DNA from: Alphaproteobacteria bacterium | GTDB lineage: Bacteria > Pseudomonadota > Alphaproteobacteria > Rhizobiales > JAKIUO01 | DNA length: 64,000 bases | Direction: 5' to 3' | NCBI GenBank assembly: GCA_024280895.1 | Contig: JAJRPI010000024.1 | Location: forward strand, 14-64,013 | The notes under the pieces: model-generated | Databases searched by the model: none | What the model was told of the DNA's origin: nothing | Seen by the model: only the letters and a program-made list of their open reading frames with translations | Shown here: positions 6,930 through 36,214 of the stretch, piece after piece | Layout: each line of letters begins with the position of its first letter | Position numbering within the stretch: the stretch's first letter is position 1 | Made by a program: the position numbers and the translations under genes

Positions 6930-9900
6930 ATGGCCGAAAATGACAGTCCCGCCAAGGTTGCCGATCAACCCGAAGCGCGATCACAAAAAATACCAGAAAC
7001 CGTGGTTTCAGCTCTGCAGGATGTTAAATCCGACGACGGGCGGCTGATTCATAAACCAGAAGCGGGTGCCACTGAAGTGGTGACCGTGCACGATGGTGAA
7101 AAGCTGCTGTTTGCTTTTCCCATGAGCGACGTTAAGGTCGGACTGGTTGATGTTGATCTGATTTTGAAATTTGCTGATGGTGCCAAGATCATATTGCTTG
7201 AATTTGGCTTGCAGGTGGTATCGGAAGTCGCCCCGGAGATGCTGTTTAACGGCGATCTGGTGAAGGCCCAGGAATTGATTGCCAAGCTTGGTGCTGTGAG
7301 CATTAGCGACGAAAAGTCCGAACTTAATTTTTCGACTGATAGCGCGAACGATGTAGCAGAAAAGTCAACCAGCAATGATAGCGAGACATCGGACGAGAGT
7401 GAAGATACTCCTGTCGTCGAAATCGTCGAAGTCGAAGCAACCGAGTTTTCGTCTCCTGATTCTTCAAATAGCTCAGGTCCATCAACGGGCGAGGGTATTG
7501 CAGAAGAAGAACGCGCGCGCATAGATGAAAATCTCGCGACCAGTGATGAAGCATTGACCCGGCGGGGCGACGATAGCGCCGCTTCTAGTTCGCTCCTAGA
7601 TAACAGCGCCACAAGCGATGGTGAATTCAATATACCTGTCGCCGCAATGGATGTCAGGCTTTTGGGGGTCGCCAAATCCAGTCAGATCTTACAGCCCAGC
7701 GGTGTGACAGAAATACGCGGCGGTGCTGCTGTTTTGCCAGCCGAGACCGATGATGATTTTAATGTCCAACGTGCCGTTGAGAATCTGTCTGGCACCTCAG
7801 GCGATGATATTATTTACGCCGATGATCCAGAAATTGCACCTCAGGGAATGTCCGTGCGCCGATTGGAGATCACGGTAGACCTGCCGATTGCGGGCTATAA
7901 TCCGATTAGCGTGCGCATATCGGGGGTTCAAGATGGCGCGACCATTCTGGGGGCAACGCCTGTATCGGGTGCTTTTGTTCTAGCGCCGTCGGCGGCTGAC
8001 CCAAATATCTTTTTTGTCGATTTGCAATATGTTTTACCGACCTCTACCACGCCAATCAATGGCAATGGATTTCAAGACGAGTTCACATTGTCCTTCGAGT
8101 TTGAAATCTATAATAGTAGCGCGCAAGAATTTTCCCAGGCAGTGGGTTCTGCCCAGTTCGGAGTGCGCCATGTCGATGTGGTTGCAGATACAGAAGTCGT
8201 CAATAGTAGCTCTGGGCAACAGGTCTATGTATTGGCCAGCAATCCTCCGGGCAATAATATTGATGCAGGAGATGGGGACGACAAGGTTTTTGCCGCCGCC
8301 GGCGTCGATACCATTGTTGGCGGCACTGGCGAGGATACGATCTCCTACGACATGTCCCATGAAGCGGTTTCTGTTGACCTCGAAACGCAGATTGTCTCTG
8401 GGGGCTATGCCGAGGGCGATACAATTTCAGGGTTCGAGAATGTTGAAGGGTCTGACTTCGACGATACATTATTGGGCACCTCTGGTGATAATGTGATCAC
8501 CGGCGGCGCCGGTGCTGACACGATTGATGGGCGTGGCGGTATCGATACGCTTGGTTATGAAACCTCCGATGAGGGCGTCAATGTTGATCTTGGCACAGGC
8601 ACAGGCACGGGCGGCGATGCCCAGGGTGATGTGATTGCCAATGTTGAAAATATCAAGGGTAGCAAGTTTGATGATATCTTAACCGGCGATGGCTTTGATA
8701 ATGAGCTTGATGGCGGTCTTGGTGATGATATCTTGAGCGGTGCGGCTGGTGCCGATACACTCATCGGCGGTGCGGGTGATGATCGCCTCGAAGGCGGTGC
8801 CGGAGCCGATCAACTAAGTGGTGGCGCTGGATCCGACACGGCAACTTATGCCAGTTCAGCCAGTGGCGTGGATGTTAATCTGAACCTTGGAACCGCAGCG
8901 GGGGGTGACGCTGCTGGTGATAGTTTGACCGATATCGAAAATCTTGCAGGGTCCTCGCATGATGATACGCTGACCGGCGATAGTGCGGATAATGTACTGT
9001 CTGGCAATGGTGGCGACGATGTTCTTGCAGGGCTTGGCGGCGCGGACGCTCTCGTGGGTGGTGCAGGATCCGATACGGCTGACTATAGTCTATCTGGTGC
9101 GGCGGTGACCGTTAATCTGTCTGATGGTACGAGCACGGGCGGCGATGCGCAGGGCGATAGCTTCACTGATATTGAAAATCTGCGAGGATCCGCCTTGGCT
9201 GACAGTCTGACAGGGGACGTTGGCGACAATGTTCTGGATGGCGGAGACGGGGATGATCTTCTTAAAGGGGGAGGGGGTGCCGATACCATTATTGGCGGCC
9301 TTGGGACCGACACTGTTGATTTTAGTGACAGCGATGATGGAGTCAATGTTGATTTGGTAACCGGCATTGGTAGCGGCGGAGATGCCGAGGGTGATAGCTA
9401 TGCCGGGCTTGAAAATATTACGGGTTCGCGTCAGGGCGATATATTGCGCGGCGCGGCTGGTTCCAATGTGTTGCTGGGTGGTCTTGGAGATGACGTTCTG
9501 GAAGGTGGTGCCGATGATGACCAGTTACTTGGTGGTGCCGGTTCCGACACGGTCAGTTACGCCCATTCGAGCGGCGCGGTAATAGTCGACCTTTCAACCA
9601 ATAGTGGCTCTGGAGCGGATGCCGCGGGCGATCATTTCGACAGCATTGAAAACCTGTTGGGGTCTGATTTTGATGATGAGTTGCGCGGCGATGGGCAAGA
9701 CAACAATCTGGATGGCGGTCTTGGTGACGATCGGCTGATTGGCGGGGCTGGCGCTGATGAATTGCGTGGCGGCGCTGGCATTGATACTGCTGACTACAGT
9801 GCTTCTGGCAATGGAGTAACGGTTGATCTGACGCTTAATTCAGGTATTGGCGGCGATGCCGAGGGTGACCGTTTTAGTGAAATTGAAAATGTCACCGGCT

Positions 9901-12900
9901 CTGATTATACCGACATGATTACTGGCGACGATGGTGACAATCAACTTGAAGGTGGCGATGGCGGCGACACTCTTATCGGCCATGACGGGGACGATATCCT
10001 GCGGGGAGAAGCTGGAGCAGACCGCCTTGATGGTGGAGCTGGTGCTGACCAATTGGACGGTGGTTCCGAAAATGACACACTTGATGGCGGCTTGGGTGAT
10101 GACGCGCTTGATGGCGGGACGGGCGCTGATGTTCTGATCGGTGGAGCTGGCGCAGATGATCTTGATGGCGGTACTGGTATTGACCGTATCGACTATCAAG
10201 GATCTGCAGGCGGCGTGACCATTGACCTTGCTGCCGGTACTGGTGTTGGCGGTGATGCTGATGGCGATACGATCAGCAATGTCGAGCAGGTGACGGGCTC
10301 ATTTCAAGACGATGATCTGCGCGGTGATGCCTTTGACAATACGTTTGGCGGATCGCAGGGTAACGACCGACTGGAGGGGCGTGCCGGCAACGATATTCTT
10401 GACGGTGGTCTTGGCGACGACCTGTTAGTTGGTGGGGCAGACGCCGACTTGCTGATTGGCGGTCTTGGTAATGATACCGCCGACTATACGGCCTCTGGCG
10501 CAGGTGTCACTGTCAATCTTGATACGGGTGCAGGTACGGGCGGCGATGCTGCGGGTGATGTGCTGATCGGCATCGAAAATGTCACGGGTTCCGCCTTTGA
10601 CGATACTTTAACGGGAGATGCGCAAAGCAATGACCTAACCGGTGGTGCTGGTGACGATATTCTTGTTGGCGGAGCCGGGGCGGATAAGCTGGATGGCGGC
10701 GCTGGCATTGATACGGTTGATTATAGCGCGTCGAGCGATGCTGTTACAGCTTATCTAGATGGCACTGGTGGCGTTGGCGGCGATGCGGCTGGTGACACCA
10801 TTAGCAATGTGGAGCGTCTTGTCGGCTCCGATCTGGGCGATCATCTCGAAGGCGATATCACAGATGATATTCTCGAAGGTGGCCTTGGGAATGATGAACT
10901 GATTGGTGGCGCTGGTGATGACACCCTTTTAGGCGGTGACGATGATGACACCCTGCGCGGTAGTAGCGGCGATGATGTGCTCGATGGGGGCAGCGGTGAT
11001 GATCTGCTGGAAGGCGGCGCTGGTGCTGATGATCTAAGTGGCGGCATTGGCCGCGATCGCGCGGACTATAGTGCCTCAATGGCGGGCGTTGATGTCGACC
11101 TTGTTGCGGGAGCTGGTATTGGCGGCGACGCGGCTGGTGATGTGCTAAGTGGCATTGAAGATCTTACCGGATCGCAATTCGCAGATACTCTGACCGGAGA
11201 TGCCAATGCCAACCTGTTGCAAGGGCTTGGCGGTGATGATGTTTTAATCGGTGGTGCTGGTGACGATACCCTGGAGGCAGGGACTGGCGATGATATTTTG
11301 GCGGGTGGCGTTGGCGCGGATAATCTCGCTGGTGGTGCGGGGAGCGATACCGCTGACTATAGTGCTTCAGCTGCTGGCGTCGGTGTGGACCTTGCTGCGG
11401 GCTCAGGCGTTGGCGGCGATGCCGATGGAGATACCTTGTCGGCAATCGAGAATGTCACAGGATCGGCATTTAATGATGAATTGCTCGGTGATCGCCGGGA
11501 CAATATTTTATCGGGCGGCGCGGGCGATGATGTGCTCGAAGGTGGCGATGGTGACGATACGCTAAGTGGTGGCCTTGGCGATGACAGCCTGGAAGGCGGC
11601 GCGGGTGCAGACAGTCTTGATGGCGGCGCTGGTACTGATAGTGCAGATTATGGTTTGTCAGCCAATGGGGTCACGGTTGACCTTGGTGCCGGTACGGGAA
11701 CGGGCGGTGATGCTGACGGCGATACTTTTATAGATATCGAAAATCTCGATGGCTCAAATTTTTCTGACACACTGATCGGTGACGGGAGTGCCAATGTGCT
11801 TAGCGGCGCAGGCGGCGACGATACGCTAAGCGGTGCAGCGGGTGATGACACCTTGCGCGGTGGGGCGGGCGACGATGTCTTGATCGGTGGAGCCGGGGCC
11901 GATGATTTGATTGGTGAAAGTGGCACGGATAAAGCTGATTACAGCGCCTCTGGTGCGGGCGTGACCATTGATCTTGCGGCTGGAACAGGTCTGGGTGGAG
12001 ACGCGCAAGGCGATACGTTAAGCGGTGTAGAAGATGTGCAAGGCACGGACTTTGCAGATCTGCTAACGGGCGATAGCCAAGATAATATGCTGTCAGGTGG
12101 CGCGGGCGATGATGTGCTGGCAGGGGCAGCTGGTGCGGATGATTTGCGCGGCGGGGCTGGTACGGATGAGGCCGATTATTCCGCCTCAGTGGCGGGAGTG
12201 AATGTTAACCTTGGTAGTGGCACGGGATCAGGTGGCGATGCCGCTGGCGATACGCTTGTTGGTATTGAAAACGTTCGGGGTTCGGATCAATCCGATACGC
12301 TCATCGGTGACGATAATGACAATGTCCTAAGTGGCGGCCTTGGTGATGATGCGCTGGCCGGTGGCCTTGGCGCCGATACCCTTAGCGGTGGCGGCGGCGT
12401 CGATCGTGCAGACTATAGCGCCTCCGATGCGGCAGTGACGGTGGATCTGTTCGCGGGAACTGGCGCTGGCGGTCATGCTCAGGGTGATAGTTTCAGCAGC
12501 ATCGAAAATATCACGGGGTCAAATTTTGCCGATACCATTACAGGCGATAATGCTGACAATTTGCTCGAAGGTGGCCTTGGCGATGATGTCATTTTGGGCG
12601 GCCTTGGCAATGATCATGTACTTGGCGGCGGCGGCAATGATGTATTGATCGGCGGTGCTGGTGCAGACGACCTGACGGGCGGCAGCGGTACCGATGAAGC
12701 TGATTATTCCGCCTCTGGGGCTGGCGTCACTGTTGACCTTGCGGCGGGCTCCGGGCTGGGCGGCGATGCGGCTGGTGACACTTTGCTTGAGATTGAGAAT
12801 GTCACGGGCACAGATTTTGCTGATATTTTGAGCGGTGATATTGCAGACAATGTGTTGGATGCGGGCACTGGCGCAGATACTCTTAGCGGTGGAGCTGGTG

Positions 12901-15900
12901 CCGATACGCTTTTGGGCGGGGCCGACACTGACAGCCTTGAAGGCGGCAGTGGTGCCGATGTTCTGGACGGTGGCACGGGCATTGATACGGCCGTCTATGG
13001 CGGTTCAGCTGCTGGCGTAATAGTTGATCTCGTGTCAGGGACCGGATCTGGCGGGGACGCTACTGGCGATACGCTAAGCAATATAGAAAATATTACTGGG
13101 TCAGAAAATGCCGACCGTCTTGCGGGCGATGCCTTTGTCAACGTGCTGACGGGTGCCAGCGGCGATGATGTGCTTATTGGCCGTGGGGGTGCTGATCAGC
13201 TAATCGGCGGAGGTGGTACGGATACGGCGAGCTATGAGGGCTCGGCAGCGGCCGTAACAGTGACGCTCGATGGATCACTGGGCGTGGGCGGTGATGCTCA
13301 GGGCGATAGCTATACCAGCATTGAAAATGTGATTGGCTCAAGCCATGACGATACGCTGACGGCAGCTGCAGCTGGCGGTAACCAGCTTGATGGGGCGGCG
13401 GGTGATGACCTGCTTGTTTCAGGCATCGGAGCTGATACATTGATCGGTGGCGCAGGGTTCGATACCGCGAACTATGCGGGGTCTGGTCAGGCCGTTGCGG
13501 TTAATTTGACGACCGGTACAGCGACCGGCGGCACCGCAGAAGGCGATCAGCTATCATCTCTTGAAGCCGTGATTGGTTCTGATTTTGACGATATTCTCGT
13601 TGGTAATAATACGCAAAATACGCTGGATGGCGGTATTGGCAATGATCGGATCGCTGGCCGTGGTGGTGCGGACACTCTGGACGGTGGCGCAGGCGTTGAC
13701 TTTGCCGATTATTCTGCGTCCTTGACCGGCGTCGATGTTAATCTGGGCACCGGGGTTGGCTCTGGCGGCGATGCGCAGGGCGATACATTAAGTAATTTTG
13801 AAAACATAATCGGTTCTGAAGTGGCCGATAGCCTTACGGGCGATGCGGGTGTCAATGCGCTGCTGGCCGGCGGCGGCAATGATGTGCTCGACGGTGGTGC
13901 CGGGGCGGATATTCTGAGTGGTGGTACCGGTAATGATACCGCTGATTACAGCGCTTCTTCAGCCGGGGTTACGGCCGATCTATTCACTGGTATTGGCAGT
14001 GGCGGTGATGCGGCAGGGGACACATTATCCTCGATTGAAAACCTTACTGGATCTGCATTTGATGACAGCTTGATTGGCGACGGCGTTGTTAACACCATGT
14101 TCAGTGGTGCGGGTAACGATTTGCTGCAAGGGGCCGGCGGCGGCGATATTCTTGATGGCGGTGCTGGCACAGACACGGCTGTTTATGCAGCCAGTTTTGC
14201 CGGTGTTGATGTTAATCTGGCAACTGGTGCTGGTGCTGGTGGCGATGCGCAGGGCGATACGCTCTCAAATATCGAAAATATTGTTGGCTCCCTGCATGAT
14301 GATATTTTGACCGGTGATACCGGTGCAAACCAGTTGGAAGGCGGCGTGGGGGATGATCGTCTGGCTGGCGGTCTTGGCGCTGATGTTCTTGATGGCGGCG
14401 CCGACAATGATATCGCTGATTACAGCTCTTCGGCTGGCGCTGTGACGGTTGATCTTTTGGCAGGCACAGCGACGGGCGGCGATGCGGCTGGTGACACGCT
14501 GATCAGCATTGAGGGCGTGGGCGGTTCTGCCAATGATGACGTGATTTCTGGGGATGCCAATGACAATGTGCTCGAAGGCGGCGCAGGCGATGACCAGTTG
14601 CTCGGGCGTGGCGGCGCCGATGTGCTTGATGGCGGCGCGGGCAATGATACCGCTCTTTACACAGGTTCAATAGATGGCGTCAGTGTCGATTTGATTACTG
14701 GCCTTGGTGTGGGCGGTGATGCCCAGGGAGACACGCTCAGCAATATTGAAAATCTTGCCGGTTCAGCTCAGGACGATACCTTGTCGGGCAATACTGGGGC
14801 CAATGTACTGGAAGGCGCTGATGGCCAGGATACACTGCTCGGGCGCGGTGGGGCTGATACCTTGCGCGGCGATGCTGGTGACGATCGCCTCGAAGGGGGT
14901 GCCGGTGCCGATGTGCTGATTGGCGGCACAGGCACAGACACGGCGGACTATGGATCATCGGGCAGCGGCGTGACCGTTGACCTTGCTGCCGGGACTGGCC
15001 TTGGCGGCGATGCCGCTGGCGATACCCTTGCGACCATTGAAAATATTGACGGGTCCCTCCATGACGACGTGCTGAGCGGAGACACAGGTACCAACAGGCT
15101 GTCAGGTAATGAGGGCGATGATCGTCTGATCGGCGGGGCTGGTGCCGATATTCTGGTGGGCGGCGCCGGTACTGATACTGCTGACTATCAGACCTCAGTT
15201 TTAGCGGTCGATGCCAATCTTGCGACAGGGGTTGGAACGAGTGGCGATGCGACAGGGGATACTTACGCAACTATTGAGAACCTTCGCGGCTCACTTCAAG
15301 ATGATGTTCTAACCGGCGATGTGAACGCCAATGTTCTTGAAGGCGGCGATGGAGATGATCGTCTGGTTGGAGGCGTTGGTGCCGATACATTGATTGGTGG
15401 CGCTGGCACGGATGAAGCAGATTATAGCACCTCTGGCGCGGCGGTGAGCGTTGATTTGACGACGGGAACGGGATCAGGCGGCGATGCTGCTGGTGACAGT
15501 TTGACGACCATTGAAAATGTCACGGGTTCGGCCAATAATGACACGCTGACCGGGGACGCCGGTGCAAACACTCTTGATGGTGGTGCGGGTGATGATGTGT
15601 TGGCGGGGCGCGGTGGTGCTGATACTCTGCTGGGCGGTAGTGGCACAGATGCTGTGGACTATAGCGCATCTGCGACAGCAGTTAGTGTGGATCTGTCAAC
15701 CGGTACTGGTACTGGCGGTGATGCGCAGGGCGATACATATACCGGTATTGAAGATGCCATTGGCTCAAGCAATAATGACACGCTTATCGGTGATGCGGGG
15801 GTTAATACTCTTCAAGGTGCTGGCGGGGCGGATGATCTGCGCGGCGGTGCAGAAGACGATACCCTGGAAGGCGGCGCAGGCACAGACCGGCTGGCTGGCG

Positions 15901-24900: not shown

Positions 24901-27900
24901 CTGACACGCTTGATGGCGGGGCGGGGAATGACAGTTTTGTAGGTGGTTCTGGCGCGGATGCCATCACGGGGGGTGCCGATACAGATACGGTCGATTATAG
25001 CGCTTCAGCTGCTGGCGTCACGATCGCCATTGATGGGCTGGCAGGTAGCGGCGGCGATGCTGCTGGCGATACACTGACTACTGTTGAAAATATAATCGGA
25101 TCTGACCTAGCAGACAATCTGACTGGTGATGCAAATAACAATGTTCTGACGGGCGGAATCGGTAACGATATATTGTCCGGTGATGGCGGTATGGATACTC
25201 TTACCGGCGGCGTTGGTGGTGATACGCTAAGTGGTGGTGCTGGTGCTGATACTCTTGATGGCGGTGCCGACAATGACACGCTGGATGGCGGTGCTGACAA
25301 TGATACGCTGACCGGTGGCACAGGTGATGATATTCTCATTGGCGGTGCCGGCGCCGACATTCTTGTTGGTGGTGGTAACACAGATGTTGCTGATTATAGC
25401 GGTTCAGCTGCTGGCGTCACTGTTGATCTATCCAATCTGGGTGCTCAGGTTGGCGCAGGCGATGCGGCAGGTGATACGTTATCCGAAATCGAAAATTTGA
25501 TCGGTTCCTCTCAGTCTGACAGCCTGACAGGCGATGGTAATAATAATGTTCTCACCGGTGGTGCTGGCAATGACACGCTGACGGGTGCTGGCGGGATTGA
25601 CACATTGGACGGCGGTACTGGTGCCGACACCCTGATCGGCGGCGCGGGTGCTGACGGCCTGGATGGTGGCGCGGATATTGATACGGCTGATTACAGCGCT
25701 TCTGGTGCTGGTGTTACGGTTGATCTGACCAATGCAGGCGCGCAAAGCGGCGGCGATGCCGCTGGCGATACGCTTGTAAATATCGAAAACATAATTGGCT
25801 CAGGCTCTGTTGATATTCTGACCGGCGATGGCAATGACAATGTGCTGACCGGTGGTAGCGGTGCTGATACGCTTACGGGCAATGGTGGTGCAGATACACT
25901 GGACGGCGGTGCGGATAATGATGTTCTCATTGGTGGCGCTGGTGCCGATACGTTGATCGGTGGCGCGCAAACCGATACGGCTGACTATAGTGCTTCTGGT
26001 GCCGGGGTCAGCGTTGATCTCACCAATCTGGGTGCGCAAAGCGGCGGGGACGCGGCTGGCGATACGTTGAGTGGCATCGAAAATCTGATTGGCTCTGGTC
26101 TGGTGGACACTCTTATCGGCGATGCTGGTGTCAACGTTCTGGCAGGTGGTGCTGGCTCTGACACTCTGTCTGGCAATGCCGGGGCAGATATTTTGCAAGG
26201 CGGCGCCGATAATGACATTTTGATCGGCGGTGCTGATGGGGATGACCTGCAAGGTGGCAGCGGTACTGATACGGCCAGCTATGTGAGCTCTGGGTCGGGC
26301 GTCAATGTCGATATTGATACCGGTGCTGTTTCTGGCGGCGATGCTGCTGGCGATACATTTACCAGCATCGAGAATATCACGGGCTCTGCATTTGCAGATA
26401 ATCTGGACGGTGATGGCAATGATAATACGATTATTGGCGGTGCGGGTGCAGATGTGATTGCCGGGGATGCCGGAGCGGACAATCTTTTCGGCGATGATGG
26501 CAATGATGATCTGTCTGGCGGAACCGGTGCTGATAACCTGTATGGTGGTGCTGGCAATGACACACTGGATGGCGGCGCAGATGGTGACCTTCTAACCGGT
26601 GGTACTGGCGCTGACACCCTGATCGGCGGCGCGGGTGCAGATACGCTTGACGGCGGATCTGATATTGATACAGCTGATTACAGTGCCTCTGGTGCCGGTA
26701 TTACGGTAGATCTCACCAGTGTGGTTGGACAGAGCGGCGGCGATGCTGCTGGCGATACGCTGACCAGTATCGAAAATGTTATTGGTTCGGGTTCAGCTGA
26801 CACCATCACCGGCGATGCCAATGATAATGTTTTGACTGGCGGCGCGGGCGCAGATACGCTCACCGGTGCGGCTGGCGCTGACACCCTTGATGGGGGAGCT
26901 GGCAATGATACTATTGAAGGTGGAACCGGTGCTGACACACTAAGTGGGGGTGCCGATACAGATACGCTAAGTTACGCTGGTGACAGTGCGGGCGTGACAG
27001 TGAATATCGCAACCAATGCCGTAAGTGGCGGTGATGCTGCTGGCGATATTATTTCGGGTTTCGAAAATCTGATCGGTGGTTCAGGCGATGATAGCCTGAC
27101 CGGTACAGCCTCAGCTAATGTCATCGATGGCGGTGCTGGTAATGATATAATCGAAGGTGGTGCTGGCGGTGATACGCTCACAGGTGGAGGCAATACCGAT
27201 ACTCTTAGCTATGCGGGTGATAGCGCTGGTGTGACGATCAATCTAGCCACCAACGCGGTGTCTGGCGGCGATGCCGCTGGCGATACAGTCTCCGGTTTTG
27301 AGAATGTCACTGGTGGTTCGGGCAATGATCAACTCACAGGTGATGGCAATGTGAATGTGCTTGTTGCTGGTGGTGGTAACGATACTCTGACTGGTGGCGC
27401 TGGTGATGATACGCTTATAGGCACATCGGGTACCAATACCCTGATTGGTGGTGCCGGTGCCGATACCCTGACTGGCGGCGTCAATAATGATACGGCAGAC
27501 TATTCCGCATCTGGTTCCGCTGTATCCGTAAATCTATCAACCAATTCTGGTTCTGGCGGTGATGCCGCTGGTGACGTGTTGACCAATATCGAGGATCTGA
27601 TCGGGTCTGCTGCCGGTGATACCCTGACTGGCAATGGCGGTGCCAATACATTCGATGGCGGTGCTGGTGCCGATACGCTGGATGGCGCTGCTGGTGTCGA
27701 TACGCTCACCGGCGGTACGGGCAATGATAGTCTTATTGGTGGCGCTGGTGCTGATATCCTTGATGGCGGTGCGGATAATGATACGCTGACGGGCGGTGCT
27801 GATAATGATACGATCATTGGTGGCGCTGGCACGGATACGGCCGTCTTTAGCGGCAACTGGTCTGACTATACAATTACTGAAGCACCGGTTGGTACTTACA

Positions 27901-29246
27901 CGGTTGTCGATAATCGCGGCAGCTCGCCTGATGGCACAGACACCATCACCGGCGTTGAGAATTTCCAGTTTGCCGATGGCACGGTGACAGCCGCTGCATC
28001 CTTGAATGATGCACCAACGGACATTACGCCCAATAGTAGCTCTGTTGCTGAAAACTCAGCGACAGGTACGGTGGCCGCGACGCTTGCTGCAGCCGATGCC
28101 GATACGCTCGATAGTCCGACCTTTACGCTGGTGGGAGTTTCCACACAGTTCGAGATCATCGGCAACGAGGTGCGCGTCAAGGCGGGAGCCAATCTGGATT
28201 TTGAAACGGCAACCAGCCATGATATCACGGTGCGCGTCACCGATGTACACGGTGTGACTTATGACGAGCTGATCACCATCAATGTGACCAATGTGGACAA
28301 TATTATCACCGGTACAGCTGGCGTTGATGCGCTGGCGGCGACACTGGAGAGTGATGCCATTGATGGCCTGGCCAGCAATGACACGGTTTCTTATGCGGGT
28401 TCCGGTTCTGGCGTCACGGTCAATCTTGCCACCAATTCTGGCACTGGTGGTTTTGCGCAGGGCGATACATTTACCAGCATCGAAAACATTACAGGATCGA
28501 GCTTTAACGATACCATCACCGGTGATCTGAACGCCAACGTGCTAACAGGCGCTGGCGGTGTCGATACGCTGACCGGCGGTGCGGGCAATGACACTCTTAT
28601 TGGTGGCGCTGGTGCAGATACGCTCACCGGTGGAGCAGATATTGATACCGCCGATTACAGCAGCTCTGCAACTGGGATCGATATCGATCTCACCAATGCT
28701 GGAGCACAGGTGAGTGGCGGTGATGCTTCTGGGGACATTCTTTCTGGTATTGAGATAGTTATTGGTACCAGCGGTAATGACACCTTCTTTGGCGATGCTC
28801 AGGCCAACAGGTTTACAGGCAATGGCGGCGATGATGACTTTTTCGGCGGTGCTGGTGCCGATAGCTTCTTTATTGATGAATCATCACTTAATCTGATGGC
28901 TTTGAGTGGAAATATGATCGATGGCGGCACAGATAGTGATACGGTCGAGTTGGAGGCCAGTGCCGGATTTAGTGAAGCAGATCTGTTGAGTGTCTTGACG
29001 GGTATTGAGATCCTCGATTTCACCAGCGCCAGCGTCGCTGCCACACTTTCTTTGGATGTAAGCCAGGTTCAGGGAGCCACCGATGGCAATAATATTCTCA
29101 ATATTAATATTGATGGTGACGATAGCATTTCGTCGGTCGGCGGGGCAGAAATTCTCACCACCGTCGCTGGGTCGGTCACAACTCACGAGTTTTATACCGA
29201 TGGGACCCATACGACGCTGGAGGCAACCTTGATTGTCAACGGCTAG
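6930..29246 (+). CDS. Giant (7,438 aa) T1SS-secreted RTX / Ca2+-binding repeat protein, probable adhesin or surface protein
   Basis: One uninterrupted 22.3-kb ORF with hundreds of GGxGxDxLx nonapeptides. About 70 modules (hand count) of DTADYSxSxxGVxVDLxxGxGxGGDAxGDTLxxIENxxGS. Cadherin domain near the C-terminus, no signal peptide, adjacent T1SS genes. Confidence 0.93.
28005..28298 (+). other. Cadherin-like domain within the giant protein
   Basis: NDAPTDI...SVAENS..GTV.ATL.A.DAD...LDFET...[21 protein letters not shown] matches the bacterial cadherin consensus (xEN, DxD, LDxE, xVxD). Confidence 0.85.
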
Positions 29247-29263
29247 TGCAAAAGCTAACTAGT

Positions 29264-29293: not shown

Positions 29294-29302
29294 ACAAGCT
29301 CA

Positions 29303-29330
29303 GATCGCCTCTTGTCGAAGAGCTGCGATC
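29303..29330. terminator. Hairpin between the convergent giant gene and the MFP gene (possible terminator)
   Basis: GATCGC-CTCTT-gtcg-AAGAG-ct-GCGATC stem-loop; no clear U-tract. Confidence 0.4.
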
Positions 29331-29400
29331 GACCGCATTGTCGAGGGATGGTTTGGTAAGGGATTGTTTTGCCGCAAAAAAAACATCAGTATTGCGAATG

Positions 29401-30732
29401 CTATTGACGAAGGGCGCGCTCACTAATTCTGTTCATGGGTTTTAGCAGATAGCTCATCACAGAGTGCTTGCCGGTGAGAATATCAATATTGGCCAGCATG
29501 CCAGGTGTCACCGGTTTCAAAGGACCAAAATCACTTGCAGCCGCTTCAAGGCGCACCCGAAAATAGGGTTGACCCTGCTCGTCAGTCAGCGCATCTGCCG
29601 ATATCTCAGTGACCTTGCCAGTTAGACCGCCGTAGATGGAATAGTCATACGCGCTGATCTTGATGACAGCTGGCAGACCTGGCCAGACATTGGCACGGTC
29701 TTTAGGTGACAGGCGCGCTTCAATGGAAATAGCTTTGTCAGCCGGGACGATTTCGGCCAGCTCTTGCCCTGGCTTGATAACACCGCCAATGGTCGCAACG
29801 GCTAGACGGTTGACGATACCACTAATGGGCGCGCGCACGTCAAAACGGCGATTGCGGTCAGACATGGCCGACAGGGTTTCTATCAGTTTGGAAATTTTCA
29901 ACTGCACTTGCGTGCGCTCATTCTCAGCTTCGGCGCGAAAACGTAACCGGGCCTCGGTTGCCTTGCGCTGCGTTTGCGTGACATTGCTTTTGATGCGCGG
30001 GATCTGGTGATTGAGATCTGAAATAGTTGTTTTGATGCGTTGTAGAACGGCTTTCTTTTCGAGCAGCTTATTGGTCGAGGCAGCGCCGATCTTTACCAGC
30101 TGCACCAGACTTTTGACTTGCTTGCGAACCAGCTCGCGTTCGCGAACCTTGTTTTTGAGACGGGCCTTTAGTTCTTCGAACTCCAGCTTTTTTTCATTTG
30201 ATTGATCCTTTAAAATCAATAGCTGCTCATTGAGGCTGGCTTGGCGGCGCGAGAATAAACGTTTTTCATTGTCGATGAGTTCGGGATGTTTTTGTGCCGT
30301 CGGGGTAGGGAAGATCAGTTCCGCAGCGCCATTGGATTCTGCGCTAAGTCTTTGAAGTTCTAATTTTTTCGCGATCAAATCCAATCCAACACGGCTGTTT
30401 TCTGCATGCGAGAAACTATTTTTAATGCGTAAAAGAATATCGCCCTTGGAGACCTTGGCCCCCTGTTTGACGAGAATTTGTGCGACAATGCCGCCCTCAA
30501 GATGCTGGACGATCTGATTATTGGTGGCGGGGACGACGCGGCCCTCGCCTCTGGTGACCTGGTCAAGATGCACAAGATTGGCCCAGAGGATAAAAAGTCC
30601 AAAACCGATGCTCACCGTATAAAGAAATATTTTTTGTCCAGAAGAACCGATTTTGTCGCATTGGCGCGCAAAAAGGGAGGATTCAAGGGATTTTGTATCC
30701 ATAGCTTCGTCGTTCATTTGATTAGCCATCAT
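29401..30732 (-). CDS. HlyD-family type I secretion membrane fusion protein
   Basis: N-terminal TM, GEGRVVP..NNQIVQHLEGGIVAQILVKQG, long coiled coil, VRAPISG.V, LTPGM.A..DI.TG, YLLKP. Confidence 0.93.
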   Translation of the reverse strand: MMANQMNDEAMDTKSLESSLFARQCDKIGSSGQKIFLYTVSIGFGLFILWANLVHLDQVTRGEGRVVPATNNQIVQHLEGGIVAQILVKQGAKVSKGDILLRIKNSFSHAENSRVGLDLIAKKLELQRLSAESNGAAELIFPTPTAQKHPELIDNEKRLFSRRQASLNEQLLILKDQSNEKKLEFEELKARLKNKVRERELVRKQVKSLVQLVKIGAASTNKLLEKKAVLQRIKTTISDLNHQIPRIKSNVTQTQRKATEARLRFRAEAENERTQVQLKISKLIETLSAMSDRNRRFDVRAPISGIVNRLAVATIGGVIKPGQELAEIVPADKAISIEARLSPKDRANVWPGLPAVIKISAYDYSIYGGLTGKVTEISADALTDEQGQPYFRVRLEAAASDFGPLKPVTPGMLANIDILTGKHSVMSYLLKPMNRISERALRQ

Positions 30733-30921
30733 GATGATCCGCGTAATTTTCAGTTAATTACGGCCTACGACACAAGGCGTTTACAAGTTCTTAATCAATG
30801 GAAACATAGTTTTGGAGGAACTGCATTTGCACCAATGGTGCGATATGCTGGTTTCGGGATGGTTGGTATCTCAAATTTTGGCTCTCACACTGGTTCGGCG
30901 TTTGGATGTGGATTGAAAAAC

Positions 30922-33168
30922 ATGCAACACGCAAAATTGGCAAAAGAGCTGGACAAGGAGCGCGAAAACGGCGCGCCAAAACCGGTGCCTCTAGGCTCTA
31001 TATTCCCTGAAGGGGAGGGCGCGCAAAAACCGCGCGCCAAACCGCAAGAGGTTCTGCCCGGTGCCTTGTCAATTCTTGAACAACTACACCGCTTTGCCGC
31101 ATTGATGAGCGGTCGTGCGCGTCATGAAATCAAATCGCCCTCCCATATTGCCAATCATGCCGGTTCCATCACCCGAGAAGTTCTGTCGGCGGCGGCCGGG
31201 GAGCTTGATCTTGGCGTCCGGTATCAGCTCACTGAGCTAAGGGCGCTCAAGGAAACGGATTTTCCATGTCTGTTGCCTCTTAATGATGGTACGGCTTTTC
31301 TGGCTACGGGTTTGCAAAACGACAAGGTGCTGCTGGTTGAGCATGAGAACGACATTGTTGCGGTGCCGTTCCTGCAATTTTTTGAGCTGTATGCGGGGCT
31401 TGTTTTACAATTGCACTCATTGCCCGTGAGCAAGCAAGAGCCAGCAGCAAAGCAAGCAGCATCAAAGAGGCGCGGACAGGGCAAGCTGGCCTTGCAGATC
31501 TTCAATGCCATTTTAACTCATAACAAGGCCCAATTGATGCAATTGGCGCTGGCGGCGACTTTGAGCAATCTGCTGCTGGTGGTGCTGCCTTTATTTATCA
31601 TGTCGGTTTATGATCGCATCATTCCCCATCTGGCGATGGAAACCTTGTGGGCTCTGGCGATAGGCGTGTTGCTGGCGCTGGTGATCGATCTGGGCTTGAG
31701 GGTTGTACGTTCCACCATGCTTGAAGCCATTGCGACCTCTGTCAGCAATCACTATCAAGGGCGGTTTTACAATCGATTGATACGTCAGCAAATGTCGTCC
31801 ATGCCGCGCACCGCCGGGGGCCTGTCGGGGGCCATCAATGAGTTTGATAATCTTTGCCGCATCGTGCCGCAGGCGATTATTGCCGTATTGGTGGATCTGC
31901 CGTTCTTTATTCTCTTGCTGGGACTGCTTTATTATATGGGCGGCGCCGTTGTTGTTGCGCCGGTTCTGGGGATCTTGGTGATTGCGCTGGCCAATGTGGT
32001 GACTTACGCCAAAGCCCGAGAAGTCAACGCCGCCAGTATCGAGCTTTCTTATCAGCGTGCCAATCAGCTAATCGAGACTGTCGGGGCGATCGAGACCATC
32101 AAGGCGACCCGTTCGGAGCACCAGCTATTGGCCAAATGGGAGCAGCTGGTTGATCGAGGCGCATATTTTTCCTATCTGGCCCGGCATCAATCTGGATTTG
32201 CATCTCATCTGACGATTATCACCGTGCAGGTAACCATCGTTTTGACCTTGATCATTGGGGTCTACGAGTTGCAGGCGGGCGGTATCACGATGGGAGCGCT
32301 GGCGGCGTCTTCCTTGCTGGTGGGGCGTGCCATGGCACCGATGGGCAATTTGATCGCGCTATTTGTGCGTGGCTTTCATATGGTGCGATCCAGTAGCGCC
32401 GTTGAGCAGATCCTCGATGCGCCGCAGGAAGTCGCCGGTGACCAGAATAAAGGCAGCGCTTCTGATTTTGTGGGTGAAATCAGTTTGCATGATGTGAGCT
32501 TTGCCTATGAGGCTGACGGAAATAAGGTGTTAAACGGGCTTAGTTTTACCATCAAGCCCGGGGAGCGTGTTGGACTGATTGGCCGTATTGGTTGTGGCAA
32601 GAGCTCGCTGTTGAAGCTGTTGCCGCGGCTGGACCAGGCGAGCAGCGGATCCTTGCTAATTGATGGACATGATATTCGCCAATATGATGCGGGCATGTTG
32701 CGCCAGAATATGGCGTTGATGCCACAAGAAGCGGTGTTGATTGAGGGCTCGTTGCGCGACAATATCTGCTTTGGTCTTGGCGAGATTGCCCGCGAAGATT
32801 TCGAACAGGCGGTTGAACTATCGGGAGTCAAGGAATTTGCCTCCGTGCATCCGCAGGGATATGGCATGCAGGTGGGGCCGCGCGGTGAGAGATTGTCGGG
32901 GGGCGAGCGGGCCGGTGTGGCCCTTGCCCGGACTTTGTTACGGCCTTCAAAAATGGTGCTGCTTGATGAACCAACAGCAGCTATGGACAATGAATTGGAG
33001 CGCCGAATTGTCAGCAATCTTGGTGGTTGGCTCAAGGATCGCACATTGATCGTGGCCACCCATCGAGCCCCCGTGCTGGCGCTTGTTGATCGCATTATCT
33101 GGCTGCACAAGGGCCGGGTCATCGCTGATGGTCCTCGCGATGAAGTGCTTGCAAAGCTTAAAGGATAA
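30922..33168 (+). CDS. Type I secretion ABC transporter (permease/ATPase, HlyB/LapB-like, with N-terminal C39-like domain)
   Basis: PLFIMSVYDRIIP TMD motif, Walker A GRIGCGKS, signature LSGGER, Walker B VLLDEPT, H-loop ATHR. Start moved to ATG 30922 because the track ORF from 30478 overlaps the MFP gene on the opposite strand. Confidence 0.92.
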   Translation: MQHAKLAKELDKERENGAPKPVPLGSIFPEGEGAQKPRAKPQEVLPGALSILEQLHRFAALMSGRARHEIKSPSHIANHAGSITREVLSAAAGELDLGVRYQLTELRALKETDFPCLLPLNDGTAFLATGLQNDKVLLVEHENDIVAVPFLQFFELYAGLVLQLHSLPVSKQEPAAKQAASKRRGQGKLALQIFNAILTHNKAQLMQLALAATLSNLLLVVLPLFIMSVYDRIIPHLAMETLWALAIGVLLALVIDLGLRVVRSTMLEAIATSVSNHYQGRFYNRLIRQQMSSMPRTAGGLSGAINEFDNLCRIVPQAIIAVLVDLPFFILLLGLLYYMGGAVVVAPVLGILVIALANVVTYAKAREVNAASIELSYQRANQLIETVGAIETIKATRSEHQLLAKWEQLVDRGAYFSYLARHQSGFASHLTIITVQVTIVLTLIIGVYELQAGGITMGALAASSLLVGRAMAPMGNLIALFVRGFHMVRSSSAVEQILDAPQEVAGDQNKGSASDFVGEISLHDVSFAYEADGNKVLNGLSFTIKPGERVGLIGRIGCGKSSLLKLLPRLDQASSGSLLIDGHDIRQYDAGMLRQNMALMPQEAVLIEGSLRDNICFGLGEIAREDFEQAVELSGVKEFASVHPQGYGMQVGPRGERLSGGERAGVALARTLLRPSKMVLLDEPTAAMDNELERRIVSNLGGWLKDRTLIVATHRAPVLALVDRIIWLHKGRVIADGPRDEVLAKLKG

Positions 33169-33174
33169 TCCATC

Positions 33175-34011
33175 GTGGCTCGCAGAGAAGCAGAAGCAGA
33201 AAATCACTGGCCGGGTTTTGTCGATGTGCTCTCGACCATTGTGATGGTTGTGACATTCCTGCTGATTATTCTGGGTATCGTGATTTTTGTGATCTCGAAA
33301 AATATTTCGACGGAACTTGAAAAAGCGGCTCAGGAAGTGGAGGCGGCGCAAGAGGCGCTGGCGCTGGCGCAAGACAAAGCGGATGAGATGAAGGAGAAGG
33401 CGGAGGCTCAGAATGAGGCTCAGGCTCAGAATCAAGCGCAGGCTCAGGCGCAGGCTCAAAATCAAGCGCAGGCTAAGAATGAGGATCAGGCCGAGGCCGA
33501 GGCCGAGGCTCAACAAAGTAGCGCCAGCTCTAGCAAATCAGCGGCCGTGTTTCGTTCGCAAATGTCAGAAGAACTGACGCAAAATGATGAGATTGAAAGC
33601 GAAGACAAGTTGACGGTGCGCACCCGTCAGACCAAGAACACCAAGCAGATTGTTATCTCGACAAACGAGCGCGAAACCGATCCGCGCAAGCTCAAGGTGA
33701 CCAGTTCCAAAGCGGCGTTGTCACTTTTATTTAAGGGCGGCGTAAAAATTTCTGCAGATGCAACCAATGAGATACAGACTTATCTGAAGTCGAATACAGA
33801 AATAGACAAAACAAAAAAATACGAGATACGAGCTTTTTTCAACACGACGACTGGTTCCATTAGTGAAGCCAAGCGATTGGCTTATTATCGAGCCCTTGCA
33901 ACGCGCAATCAATTGTTGACATTGGGCGTTGAGGCCAAAAAAATTGGTATCAAGGTTGCCGCATCGGGGCGCGGCGAGGACGCAGGCAAAGTCAATATTT
34001 ATCTGAAGTAG
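33175..34011 (+). CDS. MotB/SiiA-like single-pass membrane protein with C-terminal OmpA-like domain
   Basis: WPGFVD(17)VLSTIVMVVTFLLIIL TM helix with the stator-type Asp, an A/Q/E-rich linker, and C-terminal LAYYRALATRNQLLTLGV (OmpA-like RA..R..L...GV). GTG start 6 nt after the ABC stop. Confidence 0.75.
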   Translation: MARREAEAENHWPGFVDVLSTIVMVVTFLLIILGIVIFVISKNISTELEKAAQEVEAAQEALALAQDKADEMKEKAEAQNEAQAQNQAQAQAQAQNQAQAKNEDQAEAEAEAQQSSASSSKSAAVFRSQMSEELTQNDEIESEDKLTVRTRQTKNTKQIVISTNERETDPRKLKVTSSKAALSLLFKGGVKISADATNEIQTYLKSNTEIDKTKKYEIRAFFNTTTGSISEAKRLAYYRALATRNQLLTLGVEAKKIGIKVAASGRGEDAGKVNIYLK

Positions 34012-34173
34012 AATAACTCAGGGCTTTTGGAGCAAACGAACAGCTCGAACAAGCCCTGGTGCCGAAATGCAAAATTAACTAGTTATTGAGCAATTATCAT
34101 TAACACTCATACTTGATTGTACTGCGCTTGAATTAAATCGACGATTTTAATAATCGCGCATCCAGGATCACGA

Positions 34174-35817
34174 ATGAGACAAGACATTCAAAAACAACTC
34201 TACCGCATGACCTTTGTGGTATTTGTGATGATTGCTCTTGGCATCTGGCAGCGCGAATTTGTTGTCACTGCCATCAATTCCAATATTTTTCTCAATGCGA
34301 CCATTATCGGCACATTTGTGTTCGGTCTTGGACTGGTCTTTAAATATCAGTTTGATCTGCGCAACGAGATTATCTCTTTTGAGGCACTGCAAGAAAAATA
34401 TAATGATATTTTGCGCAAGGACGAGGATGAAACCGATCCGTTCTGGCGTTTTCAGCGTTGTCAGAAGCCAGCCATTATATTCTCGCCTCCACGTGTCATG
34501 TGGCAGGCTTATTTCCTCATATCTGATGAGATGTCGCGGACCGGTAATCTGAAGATTTCCGCCGGAACCATGCAGACGCTCATCGATGGGATTGACACCA
34601 AGCTGGATGATCAAAAAAGCCTGTCGACCTATATTACGGGTCTGCTGGTGTTTCTTGGCTTGATCGGCACATTTGTGGGTCTGATGGTGACATTGGCCTC
34701 GGTTGGTAAAATCATTGGTGATCTGGATTTGTCGGGAGGTGGCGGCACTGAAAGCATCCAGCAATTGATGACCAACCTGAAGACACCGCTTCAGGGCATG
34801 GCGACGGGTTTTAGCTCGTCCTTGTTTGGTCTCGTGACATCACTGGCACTTGGTCTGATTGTGCGGTTTCAAAGCCTTGCAGCCTCTAGCCTGAAACTTG
34901 GTTTTGAAGCCTGGCTGTCTAGCGTTGTGCATATTACCGATGATGCAGATGGTGGCGGCGCTGTTGCTGGAAGCGCTGGAGCGGGGATCGATCCCCAACA
35001 TTTACGTTTGATGTATAATGTGGCCAAATATACGCTGACTTCATCGAACAGAACCAATCGTACACTCGATAAACTGGCAAGCGCTGTTCTGGAACTAACG
35101 CGCGAGCAGTCCAGGCAGGAGGCGGCGACCAGCGAGCTGTCTGGCCATATGGAAAAGAGCGCGCAATATCAAGGTGCCATGTCCTATCATCTTGGACGCA
35201 CCGCCAAGGCACTTACAAGTTATGAAGATGCGGCTTTGAGCGCGTCGCGGCAAACCAATAGTCAACTTGATACGATGGCTTCAACCATCAAGGATCTCAC
35301 ATCAGAGCAATCTCGTCACGGCAGCGCCACCAGCGAACTGGCAGGCCGTATGGAGGAAAGTGCCAAACTGCCAGGCATCATGTCTCATCATCTGGGTAAA
35401 ACGGCTCAGGCTTTGGCCAACCATGATGATGTGGCGGTCAAATTGCGCGAGATTGATGTTGCCCTCAATGGCAGACTTGATGGACTGGAGGGGGCGATTG
35501 ATCGCTCGGCTGGCAATATTGAGAGCCTGACCGAAGAAATGATCAAATTGGCTGAACCTGATGAAAGTGCGCTGGATGCTGAATATCAAAGCATGATGGC
35601 GAAAATAGAAAACACCATTGAGCGCGATGCTATCGTGCAAGAACCCATTGCTGTGAACGCTGTTGGCGCGAGGCCCGCTGGGGCACCACGGCCTGCTGCG
35701 GGGCAAAATACTGCCACGACGGCTTCTACAACAACATCGCGAAACGCCGACTCCATTGGTGAAATGAGAGACAGGCTAACCGGTGCGTATGGGCGCGGAA
35801 CGGATCAGGAAGTCTAA
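34174..35817 (+). CDS. MotA/TolQ/ExbB-family (SiiB/ZorA-like) proton-channel protein with long cytoplasmic tail
   Basis: Four hydrophobic segments, including LVFLGLIGTFVGL and GMATGFSSSLFGL (ExbB/MotA channel helices), then a ~300-aa helical tail. Confidence 0.8.
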   Translation: MRQDIQKQLYRMTFVVFVMIALGIWQREFVVTAINSNIFLNATIIGTFVFGLGLVFKYQFDLRNEIISFEALQEKYNDILRKDEDETDPFWRFQRCQKPAIIFSPPRVMWQAYFLISDEMSRTGNLKISAGTMQTLIDGIDTKLDDQKSLSTYITGLLVFLGLIGTFVGLMVTLASVGKIIGDLDLSGGGGTESIQQLMTNLKTPLQGMATGFSSSLFGLVTSLALGLIVRFQSLAASSLKLGFEAWLSSVVHITDDADGGGAVAGSAGAGIDPQHLRLMYNVAKYTLTSSNRTNRTLDKLASAVLELTREQSRQEAATSELSGHMEKSAQYQGAMSYHLGRTAKALTSYEDAALSASRQTNSQLDTMASTIKDLTSEQSRHGSATSELAGRMEESAKLPGIMSHHLGKTAQALANHDDVAVKLREIDVALNGRLDGLEGAIDRSAGNIESLTEEMIKLAEPDESALDAEYQSMMAKIENTIERDAIVQEPIAVNAVGARPAGAPRPAAGQNTATTASTTTSRNADSIGEMRDRLTGAYGRGTDQEV

Positions 35818-35818
35818 T

Positions 35819-36214
35819 ATGTCAATTTTTTCCCAGCTCTTTGATCGAAATCTTAGGAATAAAATCCCGGTCTTGCGGATTGGCACTTCGGCGGATCGCC
35901 GTTACCAGCGGACCGATTGCTATATTATTAGCTCTTTGTCGCTGATGAGCCGCCCCATCATGTTCGATGGTGTGGTCGACAGTGTTTCTTCCAAAGGCAT
36001 GCAGTTTCGCCCCGCTTCGAGCTATATTCTCGACCGTCGCGGTGAAATGGTCGGTATTGACATCAATTACAAAACCTATTTTGGCACCATCGTTGCGGTG
36101 CGCTATTCCGGTTATGGGATCGCGTTATCTGAACCGATTTCAGATGAAGAACTGGATGGCATATTGGAAGAATATGGCTATGCCAATGCGCAAGAGGCCG
36201 GCGTTTCTGCTTGA
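35819..36214 (+). CDS. PilZ-domain-like protein
   Basis: RRYQR (RxxxR) followed by DSVSSKGMQF (variant of [D/N]xSxxG) and a beta-rich C-terminal half ending GIAL. ATG lies 1 nt after the MotA-like stop, with AGGAAG upstream. Confidence 0.6.
   Translation: MSIFSQLFDRNLRNKIPVLRIGTSADRRYQRTDCYIISSLSLMSRPIMFDGVVDSVSSKGMQFRPASSYILDRRGEMVGIDINYKTYFGTIVAVRYSGYGIALSEPISDEELDGILEEYGYANAQEAGVSA

Follow-up and report, generated by a model that had tools for sequence, protein, structure and literature searches.

A candidate c-di-GMP-responsive stator-PilZ module associated with type I secretion of giant RTX proteins in Alphaproteobacteria

A six-gene cluster in an alphaproteobacterium of the Rhizobiales (lineage JAKIUO01) encodes a giant repeats-in-toxin (RTX) protein, two components of a type I secretion system (T1SS), a pair of proteins resembling the MotA and MotB subunits of ion-driven motors, and a PilZ protein. 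The cluster lies on contig JAJRPI010000024.1, in a stretch of 64,000 nt referred to here as the window. We interpret the six genes as one unit, a T1SS for a giant RTX protein carrying a cyclic di-GMP (c-di-GMP)-responsive stator-PilZ module that would regulate or energise it, and we assign this statement as a whole a probability of roughly 0.55. A functional link between the trio of MotB-like, MotA-like and PilZ proteins and the T1SS with its RTX protein is highly probable, and a specific output of the module in retention or release of the giant protein is a possibility to which we give somewhat less than even odds. A preliminary description, made from the letters of the window alone, had named these six genes; all are present where it placed them, and their identities hold when judged with family profiles and predicted folds.

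Conservation of the gene neighborhood

The trio occurs beside T1SS and giant RTX genes across many species. A scan of GTDB, with one genome per species, returned 133 relatives of the MotA-like protein (A subunit). The best 80 loci were examined by BLASTP of the window proteins against all open reading frames (ORFs) of each locus, and only sufficiently flanked loci were counted. A PilZ gene followed the A-subunit gene in 74 of 75 assessable loci, and a gene for the MotB-like protein (B subunit) adjoined it in 70 of 73. Genes for an ATP-binding cassette (ABC) exporter and a membrane-fusion protein (MFP) were found in 48 of the 58 loci with at least 5 kb upstream, and a T1SS and/or a giant RTX gene was present in 31 of the 33 loci with at least 9 kb on both sides. 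The preliminary description had named a survey of this kind as the way to see whether the trio co-occurs with T1SS and giant RTX genes, and the fully flanked loci show that it does. Recurrence in dozens of species puts this adjacency far outside what chance would produce.

The commonest layout across loci was that of the window, RTX(+) MFP(-) ABC(+) MotB-like(+) MotA-like(+) PilZ(+). It was carried by Devosiaceae, Maritalea, Bosea, Methylocystis, Beijerinckiaceae, Rhodobiaceae, Tepidamorphus, Cohaesibacter, Roseibium, Chthonobacter, Geminicoccaceae, and others. In Maritalea, independent gene calls from another pipeline gave the same six genes, here beside a nos cluster; the unit therefore travels between genomic settings. 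Median gaps between successive genes on the ABC strand were 72, 120, and 27 nt across loci, compared with 6, 162, and 1 nt in the window. Substrate ORFs beside the module ranged from 1,600 to more than 5,000 aa, running off locus ends.

Parvularculaceae loci were arranged differently, with a divergent MotB-like gene, no adjoining ABC and MFP genes, and a giant RTX gene that abuts the PilZ gene on the other strand. The possibility that the minus-strand MotB-like BLAST matches in these loci were low-complexity artefacts was considered and rejected, as they are real divergent MotB-like genes. A conserved gene of about 430 aa (with LFLHNNFPAQFGG in its N-terminus) adjoins the MotB-like gene in Parvularculaceae-type loci (L036:7885-9198(-), L029:7975-9249(-), and L018:8557-9870(+)) and in L018 stands between the MotB-like and MotA-like genes. 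Its product may be glycosyltransferase-like.

The only well-flanked loci without a T1SS or RTX gene formed one clade (L060, L072, L075, L078, L079, and L080), with the arrangement ptsP(-) / MotB-like MotA-like PilZ-like GGDEF-EAL and no T1SS within 10 kb. The ptsP product in this clade combines a GAF domain with a phosphoenolpyruvate (PEP)-utilising enzyme. In all four members that were scored (L060, L072, L075, and L080), the PilZ protein lacked both the RxxxR motif and the serine of the second c-di-GMP-binding motif, a loss that suggests a derived state.

The spacer between the MotB-like and MotA-like genes also recurs, with a median length of 120 nt (interquartile range 105-153). Its 3' part is conserved in close relatives as the element AAATTAACT.GTTATTGAGCAATT.TCATTAACACTC...TGATTGTACTGCGC, and a stable hairpin is predicted after the MotB-like stop codon (RNA fold z = -3.5). 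No known RNA was matched in this spacer when the cluster was compared with Rfam. The spacer may be an internal promoter or operator, perhaps one that sets the ratio of A- to B-subunit expression, or a processing site.

The MotA-like A subunit

Single-sequence searches of Pfam, NCBIfam, and PDB with the MotA-like, MotB-like, and PilZ proteins came back nearly empty, and family alignments and structure models were required to place them. For the A subunit, a word-indexed search gave 344 homologues, and an exhaustive search gave 444 clusters at 50% identity (E<=1e-30), about 130 of them full-length. The protein reached only 14.8 bits against Pfam MotA_ExbB (E 0.024), compared with a cut-off of 22.9, and matched the PADLOC models ZorA3 and ZorA1 at 8.2e-11 to 1e-7, over residues 149-229 only, and NCBIfam ZorA_2 at 2.4e-4. 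An AlphaFold model built from 112 sequences had a predicted local distance difference test (pLDDT) score of about 90 for residues 1-250, and its Foldseek matches in PDB, at probabilities of 0.9-1.0, were TolQ (1.5e-3), ZorA (7.7e-3), ExbB, PomA, and MotA. The preliminary description had called this protein MotA/ExbB-like and had named comparison of hidden Markov models (HMMs) and Foldseek as the check; the fold matches to TolQ, ZorA, ExbB, and PomA bear out that assignment.

Conserved residues of the A subunit are concentrated in two motifs, LIGT166FxGLM and GMAT211GFS214SS216LFG (GMATGFSSSLFG), which are invariant or nearly so in the family. T166, S214, and S216 are invariant, and T211 is conserved in at least 90% of members. 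By our own reading of the sequence, the protein has four hydrophobic helices (residues 13-34, 37-57, 149-182, and 212-235) and a predicted N-in topology. Alignment of the family profiles with single E. coli sequences of MotA, MotB, TolQ, and Pal by hhalign placed the expected motifs opposite one another, including A-subunit T166 with TolQ T145, at probabilities of only 0.4%-2.4%, which we regard as weak support. Judged by sequence and fold, the MotA-like and MotB-like proteins together bear the hallmarks of an ion-conducting complex in the inner membrane, of the MotAB/TolQR/ExbBD/ZorAB kind, for which a 5:2 stoichiometry is assumed.

Residues 255-547 form a long helical C-terminal tail of about 290 aa. 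Within the tail, aa 308-352 and 375-419 (window 35095-35430) are copies of one another, with 27 of 45 positions identical. Tail length varies within the family because some homologues, such as P0011 (477 aa), are without one copy. When the full-length A-subunit alignment was used as a profile against PDB, coiled-coil matches of the tail dominated the result. We also note a shorter sister family of about 380-400 aa (P0332-P0351), which in the exhaustive search matched only positions ~100-390 of the A-subunit profile, at E ~1e-47, and is without the first two helices.

The MotB-like B subunit

The B subunit begins MARREAEAENHWPGFVD17, followed by one transmembrane (TM) helix, within a single hydrophobic segment at residues 12-48. 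Asp17, in the motif WPGFVD, is conserved in at least 90% of the family alignment (A3). The N-terminus, and this part only, matches NCBIfam PRK09039, a 'peptidoglycan-binding protein' model, at 4e-14. It is followed by an Ala/Gln/Glu-rich linker (~aa 45-125) and a C-terminal domain with invariant Arg234, Arg239, and Arg244, which we describe as degenerate OmpA-like.

Support for this last identity comes from the family. Pfam OmpA was matched by 20 of 39 members at E<=1 (best 4.6e-5), the family profile matched C. jejuni MotB (6ykr) weakly (E 0.015), and hhalign aligned the RA...L..G motif of the OmpA core with Pal and MotB at low probability. The preliminary description's MotB/OmpA-like assignment stands for the N-terminal part, with its Asp17 and TM helix. 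An OmpA-like end is weakly supported because the window member has no OmpA match of its own and 20 of 39 family members have one; for the window protein we consider that identity plausible.

The PilZ protein and its c-di-GMP context

The last gene of the cluster, whose real start is the ATG at 35819, encodes a protein of the PilZ fold. Alone, the window protein reached Pfam PilZ at 0.16, and its ORF-length form had no Pfam match, whereas 32 of 40 family members matched the model, at best 2.9e-9. The core of its AlphaFold model had pLDDT above 90, and the top ~40 Foldseek matches, at probability 1.0, were all PilZ domains, including BcsA, MapZ, Alg44, PA0012, YcgR, MotI, VCA0042, MrkH, and PlzA. 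What the preliminary description had termed PilZ-like is thus confirmed in fold by family Pfam matches and by the structure model.

The residues expected to bind c-di-GMP are largely present. The window protein has R27-R-Y-Q-R31 (RxxxR) and S55-V-S57-S-K-G60, and conservation in the family is high (R27 in 37 of 40, R31 in 39 of 40, S57 in 35 of 40, and G60 in 40 of 40). The first position of the second motif is Glu in 33 of 40 members (ExSxxG; family consensus ExSxGG) and Ser in the clade of the window (SxSxxG). RxxxR was intact in 66 of 72 loci, and in 60 of 62 loci with a T1SS or RTX gene nearby. From these motifs, the window PilZ protein likely binds c-di-GMP.

A c-di-GMP connection is also suggested by a neighboring gene. 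At least 18 loci of Bosea, Beijerinckiaceae, Methylocystis, and relatives carry a GGDEF-EAL gene directly 3' of the PilZ gene (e.g., L075:12308-14170 and L060:6415-8340), and 12 of these loci also have a T1SS or RTX gene nearby. Its product of about 620 aa matches Pfam EAL at 4e-66 and GGDEF at 4e-38. The window lacks this gene. The preliminary description had proposed that the module is c-di-GMP-gated; the GGDEF-EAL gene gives that part independent support, and the noncanonical second motif of the PilZ protein leaves the gating itself less certain.

The giant RTX protein and its exporter

The giant ORF is an RTX protein along nearly its whole length. It contains 113 stretches matching Pfam HemolysinCabind, with nothing else above threshold, and 230 strict nonapeptides between aa 463 and 7305; its composition is 21% Gly and 15% Asp, with no Cys. 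The non-RTX parts are the first 463 aa, a cadherin-like stretch at ~aa 6964-7206 (Pfam Cadherin 8.6e-5, under the cut-off), and the last ~133 aa, which form the C-terminal secretion-signal region. Nonapeptide GGxGxDxUx repeats, a C-terminal signal region, and adjoining ABC and MFP genes together mark it as an RTX substrate of a T1SS. The label 'adhesin' used in the preliminary description is an assumption for a protein that is nearly pure RTX.

The ends of the protein are shared with its counterparts in other genomes. The N-terminal 460 aa were 31%-38% identical (E 1e-36 to 1e-55) in each of the six loci that showed the N-terminus of the neighboring protein, and the C-terminal 140 aa recurred in about 50 loci. 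A conserved non-RTX N-terminal region (~420-460 aa) and the C-terminal signal region thus argue for one substrate family. The N-terminal 450-500 aa had no Pfam or NCBIfam match.

At the DNA level, the giant gene is not a recent tandem array. Its sole recent tandem DNA repeat is at 25632-26275 (+), with a period of 294 nt, 2.2 copies, and 71% matches, and other RTX modules, with periods of 79 and 97 aa, have diverged at the DNA level.

Both exporter components were clearly assigned. The MFP matched TIGR01843 (type_I_hlyD) at 9.1e-109 and Pfam HlyD_3 at 2.8e-19, and almost every related locus carries its gene on the minus strand. The ABC exporter matched TIGR03375 (LssB-type) at 2.4e-179, TIGR01846 at 1.5e-98, and Pfam ABC_tran and ABC_membrane. 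The listed ORF of the ABC gene starts at 30478; the plausible start is the ATG at 30923, which gives a protein of 748 aa and leaves 190 nt between the divergent genes.

Cluster layout and flanking genes

The cluster was confirmed at window 6930-36214 (Table 1) and is flanked on both sides by housekeeping genes, with nrdJ, tyrC, and hisC upstream and msrB, a S-adenosylmethionine (SAM) riboswitch with metX-metW, and rhlE downstream. No TolC gene was found in the window.

Table 1. Coordinates of the secretion cluster and its intergenic regions, in window positions
Feature	Position	Strand	Remarks
Giant RTX protein, presumed T1SS substrate	6930..29246	+	7,438 aa, ~0.7 MDa
HlyD-family T1SS membrane-fusion (periplasmic adaptor) protein, MFP	29401..30732	-	443 aa; divergent from ABC gene
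Divergent MFP/ABC intergenic region, presumed promoter region	30733..30922	.	190 nt; from sequence and start-codon inspection
T1SS ABC exporter, LssB/HlyB type	30923..33168	+	~748 aa from ATG
MotB-like B subunit	33175..34011	+	278 aa; 6 nt past ABC stop
MotB-like/MotA-like spacer	34012..34173	+	162 nt; conserved element and stable hairpin
A subunit with MotA/TolQ/ExbB/ZorA fold	34174..35817	+	547 aa; 162 nt past MotB-like gene
Single-domain PilZ protein	35819..36214	+	131 aa; 1 nt past MotA-like stop

The riboswitch precedes metX-metW (36964-38879) and belongs to the SAM-II/SAM_alpha type (RF00521; 36838-36917 (+), 72 bits, E 3.5e-15), a usual one in Alphaproteobacteria. We take it as the downstream limit of the cluster. 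A few kilobases further downstream are genes for an ankyrin-repeat protein (40655-41398 (-)), with weak matches to models of Legionella Ank effectors, and for a methyl-accepting chemotaxis protein (43720-45513 (+)). Elsewhere in the window, the ORFs at 3774-4454 (+, 226 aa) and 62574-63557 (+, 327 aa) had no Pfam match, the former also no NCBIfam match, and may not be genes.

Proposed function and alternative explanations

We propose that the trio forms an ion-driven accessory to the secretion system. The A/B pair would conduct ions through Asp17 of the B subunit and the conserved Thr and Ser residues of the A-subunit channel helices; the B subunit would reach the cell wall by means of its long linker and degenerate OmpA-like domain, and the helical tail of the A subunit, about 290 residues, would be cytoplasmic like that of ZorA. 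Also in the cytoplasm, the PilZ protein would bind c-di-GMP and attach to the A subunit in the way that YcgR, MotI, and FlgX attach to flagellar stators, and docking would switch ion flow or rotation on or off. FlgX, a PilZ-family protein, binds the cytoplasmic face of stator units (PMC11725899). The A/B complex may also contact the ABC exporter, as SiiB contacts SiiF in the SPI-4 system of Salmonella (Salmonella pathogenicity island 4), where SiiAB conducts protons and SiiB binds the ABC protein SiiF (bioRxiv 10.1101/641415; PMC12607715). Through this contact, the complex could decide whether the giant protein stays at the surface, held by its conserved non-RTX N-terminus, or is released; alternatively, it could decide whether export proceeds at all. 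The RTX N-terminus exits last and would thus be the obvious part to be retained. The net effect would be to link c-di-GMP to a T1SS surface protein without LapD and LapG. The boldest form of this proposal is that the cluster encodes the first non-flagellar PilZ-stator pair, a c-di-GMP-gated 5:2 rotary complex that is coupled to a T1SS and mechanically sets the fate of a megadalton RTX protein by holding it at its N-terminus, releasing it, or starting its export, and we advance this form only tentatively.

Several observations weigh against the reading of the six genes as one regulated unit. The T1SS-less ptsP clade implies that the trio can exist apart from an adjacent T1SS, and the conserved element and hairpin of the spacer imply that the MotA-like and PilZ genes may be transcribed separately. 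The second PilZ motif is ExSxxG or SxSxxG rather than the canonical D/NxSxxG, so c-di-GMP binding is no more than likely. In the B subunit, the window protein has no Pfam OmpA match, and the Asp of the OmpA 'TD' motif is absent from the A3 consensus, which makes peptidoglycan binding uncertain. The neighborhood counts come from the best 80 of the 133 relatives, and do not include the sister family of ~385 aa. Finally, a retention switch and an export energiser are not separable by computation.

An export energiser is the more serious of the other explanations, although we consider it unlikely. Here, ion-motive force harnessed by the stator-like pair would initiate or maintain threading of the 7,438-residue substrate, with PilZ and c-di-GMP as the on-switch. 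The linkage of the trio to T1SS genes supports this equally well, the substrates beside the module are all very long, and an early step of HlyA secretion depends on the proton-motive force. In SPI-4, however, as much SiiE was secreted into the supernatant after deletion of siiAB as before (PMC12607715), and many giant RTX and bacterial immunoglobulin-like (BIg) adhesins use an ordinary three-component T1SS, such as Paracoccus BapABCD (PMC5588039). Less probable again is that the trio is an autonomous c-di-GMP-responsive envelope module, acting in outer-membrane or cell-wall remodelling or in polysaccharide export, whose proximity to the T1SS reflects co-regulation or shared inheritance. This would account for the ptsP clade, where the trio and a GGDEF-EAL gene stand with no T1SS within 10 kb, for the divergent MotB-like gene and the non-adjoining ABC and MFP genes of Parvularculaceae, and for a 162-nt spacer whose conserved element permits separate transcription. 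It does not sit well with a T1SS or giant RTX gene adjoining the trio in 31 of 33 fully flanked loci, from many families and varied settings, nor with the Parvularculaceae RTX gene, which still abuts the PilZ gene; moreover, c-di-GMP motifs were lost in 4 of 4 scored T1SS-less loci, which points to those loci being derived.

Assignment of the pair to a known stator-like system was rejected in two cases, each of which we regard as very improbable. An anti-phage sensor of the Zorya (ZorAB) type would explain why PADLOC ZorA3 and ZorA1, together with NCBIfam ZorA_2, head the HMM matches of the A subunit, why this subunit has, like ZorA, a long helical tail, and why ZorA is among the Foldseek matches. 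These HMM matches are confined to the channel helices, however, and PADLOC gives no significant match for the MotB-like or the PilZ protein. Genes for ZorC, ZorD, or ZorE-like effectors are not found nearby, the neighbors in dozens of species being T1SS, RTX, and PilZ genes. The order B then A is also the reverse of zorA-zorB, the order in Zorya systems. A flagellar MotAB stator with a YcgR-like PilZ brake would fit the general MotA/MotB-like fold class and a PilZ partner that recalls YcgR, MotI, and FlgX (PMC11725899), but the window has no flagellar genes, the conserved context is again T1SS and RTX, the Pfam MotA_ExbB match is only 0.024, and TolQ and ZorA outrank MotA and PomA in Foldseek. 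Context decided against Zorya, and context together with the Foldseek ranking against a flagellar stator. This agrees with the preliminary description, for which grouping with flagellar or Zorya stators would have spoken against a T1SS-linked module.

Novelty and implications

Full-text literature searching found no description of a T1SS combined with a MotAB-like pair and a PilZ protein, nor of this family, in line with the preliminary description, which knew of none for the combination. Public annotations of the proteins read 'hypothetical', 'MotA/TolQ/ExbB proton channel family protein', and 'PilZ domain-containing protein'. By analogy with T1SS accessories of the SiiAB type, the novelty would lie in the partner (PilZ), the substrate class (RTX), and the lineage (Alphaproteobacteria).

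SPI-4 is the only studied case of a MotAB-like T1SS accessory, and its mechanism is unclear even there, according to a 2025 review (PMC12607715). Our survey indicates that such an accessory is not an oddity of Salmonella, as a conserved, species-rich module is found in marine, soil, and freshwater Alphaproteobacteria, and its fixed PilZ partner provides an obvious, testable input signal. If the proposed function is correct, c-di-GMP would be tied to giant surface proteins in lineages for which no LapD/LapG route was observed, control of stators by PilZ proteins would extend beyond flagella, and cultured carriers would be at hand for genetics, among them Maritalea mobilis CGMCC 1.7002, Roseibium sp. 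TrichSKD4, Chthonobacter albigriseus KCTC 42450, and Tepidamorphus sp. 3E244. In the boldest form of the proposal, the module would stand in for the LapD/LapG switch widely among Alphaproteobacteria, and the action of SiiAB-type T1SS accessories could be studied in it.

Comparison with known systems

The LapA/LapBCE system of Pseudomonas and relatives, with its LapD/LapG switch, resembles the proposed module in that the latter would likewise tie c-di-GMP to a giant T1SS surface protein, and in both the last-exiting N-terminus could hold the protein. It differs in the presumed receptor, which is a PilZ protein with an ion channel here, whereas LapD is a receptor with degenerate GGDEF and EAL domains and acts on a periplasmic protease. 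No LapG, LapD, or LapA-type retention module was found in the window, and the first 400 aa of the giant protein contain no LapG di-alanine site, (T/A/P)AA(G/V). A system of the LapA/LapG type was rejected on these grounds, and the suggestion in the preliminary description that the module is an alternative to LapD/LapG is consistent with the gene content of the window. The BapABCD system of Paracoccus was checked and is a plain three-gene T1SS without a stator-PilZ module.

Among stator-like systems, ZorAB resembles the pair in that ZorA is the closest HMM match to the channel helices, the tail, predicted to be cytoplasmic, is long and helical, and the B subunit has an end plausibly of the peptidoglycan-binding type. 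The cluster differs in lacking effector genes, in its reversed gene order and shorter tail, and in its T1SS, RTX, and PilZ partners. TolQR and ExbBD provide the best structural matches to residues 1-250 of the A subunit. However, the cluster has no TolA or TonB partner, its B subunit ends in a putative OmpA-like rather than a TolR/ExbD-type periplasmic domain, and its A subunit has four hydrophobic helices, instead of three, and a long tail. YcgR, MotI/DgrA, and FlgX are likewise small PilZ-fold proteins genetically paired with a protein of the MotA family, with YcgR and MotI among the structural matches. In the cluster, by comparison, the partner is nonflagellar, the protein is a single 131-aa PilZ domain without a YcgR-type N-terminal domain, and the second motif is ExSxxG/SxSxxG.

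The SPI-4 SiiAB system was the comparison chosen in the preliminary description, which called the module SiiAB-like. Gene order, topology, and T1SS context agree with that description; sequence homology was not found in the comparison made, which covered SiiA, and the nearest HMMs for the A subunit are those of ZorA. A search of a PDB sequence set with the A3 profile of the B subunit gave no match to the solved SiiA periplasmic domain at E<=10, the presence of that entry in the set being unconfirmed. RTX beta-roll makes up nearly all of the substrate here, as against 53 BIg domains in SiiE; PilZ is a fixed third component here, with no counterpart reported for SPI-4; and the cluster has a ZorA-like long A-subunit tail, an alphaproteobacterial host, and no TolC gene. 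Both systems have a MotB-like protein with a TM Asp, a periplasmic linker, and an OmpA-like domain (a putative one here), together with a MotA-like partner, and both place B before A in a T1SS cluster (for the order, PMC12607715) whose giant substrate binds Ca and exceeds 0.5 MDa. In SPI-4, deletion of siiAB leaves secretion intact and reduces adhesion (bioRxiv 10.1101/641415; PMC12607715), and a cytoplasmic or inner-membrane signal input, CheM, modulates the system. Our best reading of the cluster is by analogy with SPI-4 SiiAB, as a putative T1SS accessory module in which an ion-driven channel would receive c-di-GMP input through PilZ.

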